From the IMG/VR virus record IMGVR_UViG_2622736468_000007: 28,446 nucleotides of DNA; one strand, 5' to 3'. Each line of letters begins with the position of its first letter. The first letter of the stretch is position 1. Under the pieces are notes generated by a model that saw only the letters and a list, made by a program, of their open reading frames with translations, was not told the origin of the DNA and searched no databases. Source of the stretch: a virus. Its lineage: Duplodnaviria; Heunggongvirae; Uroviricota; Caudoviricetes. Both the position numbers and the translations under genes were made by a program. This document shows, in pieces, positions 23,317 to 23,796 of this stretch.

Positions 23317-23796
23317 CTATTTGTCATTATTACACCTTTTTGACCGAGGCAAATCTCCAGCAAACCATGCGATAACGCTATGCATGAATGATATTTCTGA
23401 CTCATCAACACGTCCCAGCGCAATACAGGTCCGTTTGAACGCAGCATCTTGTAAAGATCTCCATGGATTACTATCAGCGTCTTGAACCTTTAAAAACCGA
23501 GTGCGTAGTTCGTCATCAGAAAGGGAGGAAAACTCAACAATCAACCTTTTATACTGTCGCATCTGTTCCTTTGATAAGCCAGCTTCCTGCCCAAATTGGT
23601 ATACCAATTGAAGCACCGACAAAATAGCTACAGATGCGCCAAAAATAAACATATTGCTATATGGCGCAAAAACAGAAAAGCCCAAGACAATGAGAACAAG
23701 AGTTATGCTCTTGTCTATCCGATTTAAAAGGGTGTAATTCATTTTCTCAAGAAAGAAAGAATAATGAATATCGAATGCTAGATCGTCTCGAGTCAT
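23317..23796 (-). CDS. small membrane protein with two adjacent TM helices and ~90-aa cytoplasmic tail (function unknown)
   Basis: 159 aa; RBS AAGGGAA; TM segments within ITLVLIVLGFSVFAPYSNMFIFGASVAILSVLQLVYQF. Confidence 0.75.
   Translation of the reverse strand: MTRDDLAFDIHYSFFLEKMNYTLLNRIDKSITLVLIVLGFSVFAPYSNMFIFGASVAILSVLQLVYQFGQEAGLSKEQMRQYKRLIVEFSSLSDDELRTRFLKVQDADSNPWRSLQDAAFKRTCIALGRVDESEISFMHSVIAWFAGDLPRSKRCNNDK

Follow-up and report, generated by a model that had tools for sequence, protein, structure and literature searches.

What is a small membrane-protein gene doing beside the repressor of a temperate phage, and does it act alone? We took up this question for a 28,446-nucleotide stretch of viral DNA (Caudoviricetes; IMG/VR record IMGVR_UViG_2622736468_000007), called the window below, which is an e14-like Escherichia coli prophage. 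A gene at 23317-23796 on its minus strand encodes a 159-residue protein that a first-pass annotation, made from the sequence alone, could not place in any family and proposed as a superinfection-exclusion or abortive-infection factor. We find that this gene is part of a cassette of four open reading frames (ORFs) with a conserved leader, that its product can be treated as a divergent branch of the SLATT superfamily of membrane effectors, and that the cassette lies antisense within the early-left transcription unit. We favor, at a probability of roughly 0.5, the reading that this is a divergent SLATT moron cassette of temperate phages, encoding a lysogen-expressed, micropeptide-regulated and PL-silenced effector that permeabilizes the membrane in exclusion or abortive infection.

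A conserved gene for a two-helix membrane protein

23317-23796, minus strand: gene of the SLATT-like two-transmembrane (2-TM) protein; 159 aa, ATG start, TAG stop, uninterrupted

This stretch is a real gene and not a chance ORF. Its ATG is preceded by a ribosome binding site of its own, the purine-rich TAAGGGAATAGAG, as had been reported at first pass. The protein has 78 homologues (best E value, 2e-98) and matches PHROG 6315 (function unknown; 2.8e-51). An exhaustive profile search returned 256 clusters at 50% identity, almost all of them stand-alone proteins of 150 to 180 residues. Together, these matches are far more than a chance ORF would give. The RefSeq entry, WP_000196297.1, is named only 'hypothetical protein'. 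The whole 22900-24400 stretch is present in 53 of 5426 complete E. coli genomes, and the GC content of the cassette is 0.39-0.40, versus 0.47 in its surroundings.

Hydropathy and AlphaFold2 both agree with the architecture described earlier, namely a short N-terminal segment, two close TM helices and a charged tail of about 90 residues. In the Kyte-Doolittle profile, TM1 (residues ~29-46) and TM2 (~49-66) are separated by a loop of two residues. They are preceded by a 28-residue N-terminal segment that forms an amphipathic helix (1-28) and followed by a tail of 93 residues (67-159) carrying 15 K/R and 14 D/E. The AlphaFold2 model, built on a 36-sequence alignment, is an all-helical hairpin with a helical C-terminal domain (mean pLDDT, 79), in which residues 3-41 and 49-66 are helices. 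The best explanation of these predictions is an inner-membrane protein whose 2-TM hairpin is tight and whose termini both face the cytoplasm. The C-terminal domain (67-159) contains the conserved motifs QDxDSxPW and AGDLP, and R26, Y82, D108, A119 and G147 are nearly invariant across the family.

A remote relationship to SLATT effectors

SLATT, which Burroughs et al. reportedly defined in 2015, is represented among reference models by NCBIfam SLATT_1 to SLATT_6 and Pfam PF18181/18183/18184/18186/18160. Direct Pfam and NCBIfam scans of the window protein gave nothing significant and matched no SLATT model, and a PHROGs scan gave only families of unknown function. The first-pass annotation could not match the protein to a family; a match to the SLATT superfamily, if only a remote one, can be made.

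Three independent lines converge on this superfamily. The first is the naming of relatives: three close homologues in UniRef are called 'SLATT domain-containing' or 'SMODS and SLOG-associating 2TM effector domain-containing'. The second comes from 48 diverse family members scanned singly against 18,950 NCBIfam models. SLATT_4 was matched by 19 of them (best E value, 5.5e-5) and SLATT_1 by seven, and single members matched SLATT_5, SLATT_6 and SLATT_fungal. The SLATT_4 matches are collinear, with protein residues 24-131 aligned to profile positions 24-128 of 154. The third is a Foldseek search of the AlphaFold2 model against the viral predicted structures of BFVD. Its top 25 matches were dominated by SLATT and SMODS-and-SLOG-associating 2TM names, with probabilities of ~1.0, TMq values of 0.42-0.61 and E values of 0.002-0.5; TM-scores at the top were 0.5-0.6.

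We also compared the protein with SLATT proteins trait by trait. Two closely spaced TM helices forming a hairpin are present, as is an all-alpha fold of ~130-200 residues with an N-terminal helix and a helical extension after the hairpin (AlphaFold2 pLDDT, 79 and 83). A match to a curated profile at its own threshold is absent, as is a nucleotidyltransferase (NTase), TIR, SLOG or reverse transcriptase partner in an operon or fusion. Because no signal passes a curated threshold, we assign the 159-residue protein to none of the defined SLATT families and treat it, from the profile and model matches, as a divergent branch of the SLATT superfamily. An attempt to bridge the gap through P0201, the member closest to SLATT_4, was dropped when the search gave one near-identical protein only. 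A housekeeping membrane homologue, named at first pass as grounds for rejecting an exclusion role, was sought and not found.

Proline-rich micropeptide genes flank the SLATT-like gene

The gene annotated singly at first pass is embedded in a cassette that reads, in order, leader, upstream ORF (uORF1), SLATT-like gene, two downstream ORFs (dORF1 and dORF2) and terminator. The parts that accompany the SLATT-like gene are as follows.

23894-23997, minus strand: noncoding leader, with DNA conservation across loci
23807-23890, minus strand: uORF1, 27 aa, MYVDSNEKFHVPVNQRPAPIPEPKPEM; class-U Pro-rich micropeptide
23211-23327, minus strand: dORF1, 38 aa, MTNRIPIIPNHVPPKPRPPSPKSHRLYEYELIMDSILR; class-D1 Pro-rich micropeptide
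23117-23206, minus strand: dORF2, 29 aa, MNVFIYTWKEDHIPLKPRPSPPEPKPKSR; class-D2 Pro-rich micropeptide
23061-23086, minus strand: intrinsic terminator of the cassette, GAAGCGTCCTATAGGGCGCTTTTTTG

The ORFs are tightly packed. The uORF1 stop lies 10 nt before the SLATT ATG in the window and 8 nt before it in most relatives, and dORF1 overlaps the end of the SLATT-like gene by 11 nt. We compared 64 IMG/VR viral loci, three genome loci, four named phages and five contigs of distant members. Of the loci that include upstream sequence, all but L065, L075 and L076 have a same-strand uORF directly 5' of the gene. Its peptides have 24-48 residues and follow the pattern ..[YF]-x-E-[KR]-H-[MLV]-P-x-x-[QK]-[RK]-P-x-x-P-P-K.. 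with an acidic tail; the Fels-2 equivalent is MSDSDNFHVLPRPAPAPKPEPGQDKK. Such peptides are retained in distant phages whose DNA no longer aligns. They occur in Yersinia phage vB_YenM_42.18, Providencia phage PSTNGR2lys and Elizabethkingia phage EKP1, which has a host in the Bacteroidota. The P2-like prophage L073 keeps one although its SLATT-like protein is only 23% identical. Lambdoid loci have one or two extra micro-ORFs 3' of the SLATT-like gene, with the core H-[VIA]-P-P-x-P-[RKMI]-P-P in class D1 and [HQ]-phi-P-x-[KQ]-P-R-P in class D2. At 38 residues, dORF1 of the window is longer than its counterparts elsewhere (21-29 residues); the position of the D1 stop is therefore variable.

These micro-ORFs carry the marks of coding sequence. 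When 811 kb was searched in six frames, the motif H[VILM]P-x(1-3)-P[RKMI]P occurred 97 times within cassettes and once elsewhere. Differences between loci are in excess at third codon positions, with counts at the three positions of 1538/1570/3063 for D1 and 5875/4623/8644 for U, and of the D1 codon pairs that differ, about half are synonymous. The cassette-restricted motif, the third-position excess and the synonymous pairs together indicate that the micro-ORFs are translated and selected as peptides. They are unannotated in the RefSeq records of E. coli and have no PHROG match.

One relative hints at what the downstream peptides may contact. In P0022 from Pectobacterium aroidearum, a D1-type peptide is fused in frame to the C-terminus of the SLATT-like protein, with its internal MAKPP start kept. 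In the AlphaFold2 model of this fusion, the last ten residues of the Pro-rich tail reach a pLDDT of ~79, versus 52-60 for the linker, a hint that the D1-type tail may dock on the SLATT-like protein.

Could the peptides themselves be the active agents? The D1/D2 core H-V/I-P-P-K-P-R-P-P resembles YIPQPRPP of apidaecin and YLPRPRPP of oncocin, which are proline-rich antimicrobial peptides (PrAMPs). Changes from Y to H and from Q to a cationic residue (Q10) are tolerated or beneficial, and intracellular PrAMPs inhibit E. coli (PMC10862732). However, the core H-V/I-P-x-K/Q/R-P-R-P-P of D1 and D2 has one residue more than Y-L/I-P-R/Q-P-R-P-P, the extra residue falling between the aromatic-phi-P part and PRPP, and short Pro-rich sequences converge easily. 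For these two reasons, we keep the resemblance as a lead only.

Two other interpretations of the upstream region were considered. Polyproline (EF-P-type) stalling as a conserved feature of the uORF was weakened, because the prolines of the window and Fels-2 peptides alternate and are not consecutive. A single long upstream ORF running through the leader was ruled out, since 1-nt indels shift the frame between loci and the window frame stops before uORF1.

A leader more conserved than the protein

The leader contains the following elements.

23989->23967, minus strand: hairpin GCCTG-N13-CAGGC, with compensatory changes
23950->23934, minus strand: direct repeat 1, TTCCCCAACAACAAGGA
23928->23923, minus strand: TATAAT between the repeats, in the window sequence
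23916->23894, minus strand: direct repeat 2 with the Shine-Dalgarno sequence of uORF1

Along ~95 nt (23997->23905), the leader keeps 82-95% nucleotide identity across loci whose SLATT proteins are only 53-70% identical. Compensatory variants of the hairpin are GCCGGG/CCCGGC (Fels-2, Yersinia phage and L073), GCCGGA/TCCGGC (L077) and GCCTGA/TCAGGC (Providencia phage). The direct repeats, TCCCCAACAAC(A)AGGA, lie 33 nt apart, share the unit CCCCAACAAC and covary between loci. The sequence between them is TATAAT in the window, TAATCT in most relatives and TGTGTATAAT in the Providencia phage. We read this region as a candidate promoter and leader with operator-like or translational-control repeats. 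A structured RNA was considered and rejected: RNAalifold backs only one 5-bp hairpin, and Rfam has no match to the leader.

The cassette lies antisense within the early-left unit

Between the repressor gene and the cassette, the plus strand carries the following features.

22235-22909, plus strand: YmfK-type CI/LexA-family repressor (Peptidase_S24), convergent with the cassette
22921-22940, plus strand: repressor terminator, just 3' of the repressor gene
22949-22976, plus strand: PL-like promoter, TTGACA-16-CATAAT, near-consensus
22956-22972 and 22976-22992 (one mismatch), plus strand: operator-type sites TGTAC-N8-TACA, overlapping the PL-like promoter
23086-23098, plus strand: boxA-like motif (nutL-type), CGCTCTTTAACAA, antisense to the cassette

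The neighbor is a repressor convergent with the gene, as had been claimed, and is of the S24-peptidase/LexA type; RefSeq names it ymfK in near-identical E. coli prophages. Exact TGTAC-N8-TACA sites occur three times in the window, at 22151 and 22201 at PR/PRM and at 22956 over the PL-like promoter. This operator motif, shared with PR/PRM, identifies 22949-22992 at the sequence level as the OL/PL region. In 69 of 73 loci, the boxA-like motif is found immediately 3' of the cassette and antisense to it; there is a single further match in that orientation. From the positions of OL/PL and boxA, it follows that the early-left (PL) transcription unit runs antisense through the cassette, which is promoter-distal to nutL and precedes the first early-left genes. 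This layout suggests lysogen-specific expression. It also corrects the earlier note, which had likened the position to that of rex/sieB-type genes. The gene lies beyond OL/PL and nutL on the opposite strand, and not between cI and PL.

No N-like ORF lies between the PL/OL-nutL boxA and the first early-left genes; the antisense cassette and an sRNA-like region (sRNA, small RNA) fill this space. On the plus strand, this GC-rich region (24001-24224 and 24162-24216) matches the STnc100 sRNA family (41.1 bits versus a gathering threshold of 47; E value, 4e-7) and, weakly, DicF. In related prophages, RefSeq annotates a 'frameshifted hypothetical protein' over it. Rather than a broken gene, the GC-rich stretch past the cassette probably represents a part of the PL transcript that forms an sRNA region. 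The GC-rich stretch 23836-24360 was rejected as a protein gene or noncoding RNA of the cassette, because it belongs to the unit of the other strand, is STnc100-like and is not conserved with the cassette.

Distribution among temperate phages

The gene occurs in 64 IMG/VR viral loci and in the named phages Fels-2, Yersinia vB_YenM_42.18, Providencia PSTNGR2lys and Elizabethkingia EKP1. A YmfK-cluster repressor is its convergent neighbor in 64 of 69 loci. The gene is also opposite in strand to the flanking lytic genes in P2-like, Mu-like, Providencia and Elizabethkingia (Bacteroidota) phages. Across 75 loci, it is surrounded by phage early genes, among them repressors, Cro/CII and RdgC-like, ParB-like or YfdR-like genes.

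In two of the named phages, the locus has been annotated otherwise. The SLATT-like gene and uORF are unannotated in Fels-2 (L069, record 30256-30982), where STM2733.1 and STM2735 are called on the opposite strand, and in Yersinia phage vB_YenM_42.18 (L070, record 2950-3615), where vBYenM4218_008 is called on the opposite strand. These opposite-strand calls are probably wrong in part.

A possible working of the cassette and its alternatives

SLATT proteins serve abortive-infection systems as one class of membrane effector, and the family signal therefore fits a role in exclusion or abortive infection. From this signal and the cassette layout, we infer that the protein is expressed in the lysogen, where it would act as a pore against other phages under the regulation of the peptides. 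In a lysogen, CI/YmfK would hold PL off and the cassette would be transcribed from its own conserved leader. The SLATT-like protein would insert into the inner membrane in a closed state, restrained by the co-encoded Pro-rich micropeptides. They could do so as ligands that bind the conserved cytoplasmic domain, or because the uORF1 stop is tightly coupled to the SLATT start. Infection by another phage would lift the restraint, and the protein might then oligomerize and permeabilize or depolarize the membrane, so that the infection is excluded or aborted. On induction of the prophage itself, antiterminated PL transcription would run antisense through the cassette and silence it, and the phage's own lytic cycle would not be aborted. 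The functional guess made at first pass thus remains plausible: the sole family signal is SLATT and the gene is moron-like in an immunity region. The gene is not rex/sieB-like in sequence, however, and the positional analogy was wrong in detail.

Several results weigh against this proposal. No SLATT model reached its curated threshold among the 48 members (12-23 bits versus cut-offs of 41-60), and Pfam scans gave no significant match, only single weak ones to SLATT_5, SLATT_fungal and DUF4231. The BFVD Foldseek E values all exceeded 0.001, PDB fold searches gave no informative match, and PADLOC (2.0) had no model matching the 159-residue protein. A SMODS/CD-NTase, TIR, SLOG or reverse transcriptase partner was absent from every one of the 75 loci examined. 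The most distant members, Mu-like L075 and Arsenophonus L076, have no uORF, so the peptides are not obligatory. A scan of the minus strand for consensus sigma-70 promoters gave none for the cassette. Last, a literature search found no publication or experiment linking the family to phage resistance, and its queries (the accession, SLATT with prophage and apidaecin with prophage) gave no description of the cassette.

Might the cassette instead be a prophage-addiction module, similar to a toxin-antitoxin (TA) system? The SLATT-like protein would then be a membrane toxin, and one or more of the Pro-rich micropeptides a labile antitoxin; the module would mainly keep the prophage stable or kill cells that had lost it, and any exclusion would be a by-product. 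A peptide gene directly 5' of the toxin gene, ending 8-10 nt ahead of the toxin start, is the arrangement typical of TA operons, and no sensor enzyme is nearby. The SLATT protein of DRT10 is toxic when deregulated (bioRxiv 10.1101/2020.05.25.114553; 10.64898/2026.04.29.721553), and the hint of D1-type docking in the P0022 model would suit an antitoxin. However, an integrated prophage is not easily lost, a TA pair does not usually come with three paralogous peptides, and the distant loci L075 and L076 have no uORF. We regard an addiction module as unlikely. Note that it overlaps in part with an exclusion effector, given that TA-type and abortive-infection functions are compatible.

A second alternative places the protein in the phage's own cycle or in a nonlethal block to superinfection, as a holin or antiholin, a modulator of lysis timing or membrane potential, or a DNA-injection blocker like T4 Imm or P22 SieA, and so not as a suicide effector. 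The strand of the gene, always opposite to flanking lytic genes, argues against this, as does a family signal that is SLATT and not holin. Moreover, Pfam, PHROGs and NCBIfam gave no match to a holin, Imm or Sie family, and the related prophage L001 has a separate lysis cassette. Small 2-TM proteins that are phage-borne and widespread in temperate phages would fit such roles, and the gene does adjoin lysis genes in Elizabethkingia phage EKP1. We think that this alternative, too, has a low probability.

More speculative is a nucleotide-independent SLATT switch that senses translation. The three paralogous micro-ORFs would encode apidaecin-like peptides that, while nascent or once released, occupy the ribosome exit tunnel at their own stop codons; alternatively, released peptides would plug the cytoplasmic domain. 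Perturbation by a phage would open the pore. Normally, ribosomes pausing at the stop of uORF1, 8-10 nt away from the SLATT start, would occlude SLATT initiation. Disturbed termination, rescue or peptide supply would then let the pore be made or opened and the cell die. We hold this version to be quite unlikely. If true, it would mean that an abortive-infection effector can sense in a new way and that PrAMP-like peptides have an origin in bacterial viruses.

Least probable, and in our view a long shot, is that the micropeptides are the agents, acting on the ribosome exit tunnel or DnaK with the 2-TM protein as their conduit, anchor or immunity factor: purifying selection and high cassette specificity of the peptides would fit, but uORF1 of the window and the Fels-2 peptide have no consecutive prolines, there is no export signal or transporter, and the SLATT-like gene is the large member of the cassette and the better conserved. 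We retain a lysogen-expressed exclusion or abortive-infection effector as the preferred reading.

Other features of the window and of a related prophage

A second candidate defense moron lies at the att-proximal end of the window. This is a gene at 25932-26951 (plus strand) for a 339-residue DUF4365 protein (Pfam, 7e-19), with weak PADLOC matches to Aga_REase-PNTD (8.9e-9) and PDC-M02A (8.8e-5). It sits between an excisionase-like HTH_17 ORF (24997-25200) and the integrase gene (27223-28446, minus strand). Rfam matches on the minus strand to the IS009 RNA (1336-1534) and the ALIL pseudoknot, an IS3-family frameshift element (6327-6443), show that the left part of the window has insertion sequences. 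The cspA thermoregulator 5' untranslated region is matched twice (11977-12407 and 16200-16639, both minus strand), which indicates prophage-borne cold-shock protein genes. In L001, the relative from E. coli MLI107, positions 3395-5787 hold a gene for a nucleoid-associated protein (NAP) and a hypothetical gene, a moron between the Q antiterminator and holin genes. This pair resembles the NAP-centered 'PANGU-like' operons (bioRxiv 10.64898/2026.04.06.716658).

Comparison with known systems

Lambda rexA/rexB and P22 sieB are alike in neighborhood and presumed purpose only. They too are genes by the repressor in the immunity region of lambdoid prophages, and membrane depolarization that excludes other phages or aborts their infection is proposed here as well; RexB, moreover, is a membrane protein. 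RexB has several TM helices, versus two in the protein described here. Unlike rex and sieB, the gene is on the strand opposite to the repressor, beyond OL/PL/nutL, so that there is no cotranscription from PRM. Between the two genes stand the repressor terminator (22921-22940) and the PL-like promoter with its operators (22949-22992). The window protein matched no RexA, RexB or SieB family in scans of Pfam, PHROGs, NCBIfam and PADLOC. In lambdoid immunity regions, the cassette defines a fixed slot for morons, which lies between nutL and the first early-left genes in antisense orientation.

The Panoptes system OptS/OptE offers a possible analogy in logic. Its 2-TM effector stays silent in the presence of a co-encoded, constitutively made small molecule and is triggered by loss of this ligand (PMC12657218); the micropeptides might here take the place of the inhibitory ligand. 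In contrast to the SLATT-like protein, OptE belongs to the S-2TM-beta family and has a beta-barrel nucleotide sensor. Its ligand is a cyclic dinucleotide from the mCpol enzyme, and no such enzyme is present here.

D1 and D2 resemble the PrAMPs apidaecin, oncocin and metalnikowin, and Pro-rich ribosome-arrest peptides, in their aromatic/His-phi-P...P-R-P-P core, which lies 2-5 residues from the C-terminus; in apidaecin, the C-terminal part is PRPP-HPRL (PMC10862732). In contrast to PrAMPs, the phage micropeptides are virus-encoded and made intracellularly, and the acidic class U has no insect counterpart. In all, this small cassette (~900 bp) holds three families of conserved micro-ORFs with a motif resembling ribosome-targeting proline-rich peptides.

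SLATT proteins have been described as effectors at the membrane in type I CBASS (PMC11381338) and in DRT10/UG17 (bioRxiv 10.1101/2020.05.25.114553; PMC9226505; bioRxiv 10.64898/2026.04.29.721553), and they occur in TIR-linked systems, some of them in phages (PMC9503650; bioRxiv 10.1101/2024.12.27.630466). Like the SLATT proteins of CBASS, DRT10/UG17, TIR-SLATT and RADAR accessories, the phage protein is built, within 150-190 residues, from an N-terminal helix, a 2-TM hairpin with a tight turn and helical extensions in the cytoplasm; it is also carried on mobile elements and has a predicted membrane-effector role. Unlike them, it has no signal-synthesizing partner, and one to three Pro-rich micro-ORFs with a conserved leader are found instead. 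It also occupies a fixed slot in the immunity/early region of temperate phages, antisense to lytic transcription. SLATT effectors have so far been described as dependent on a signal-making partner, whether a CD-NTase, a TIR protein, a reverse transcriptase with noncoding RNA, or RADAR. A phage-borne branch of ~256 clusters, ranging from lambdoid, P2-like and Mu-like phages of Enterobacterales to a Bacteroidota phage and having micropeptide genes as its sole partners, would show that such pores can be controlled in a different way.

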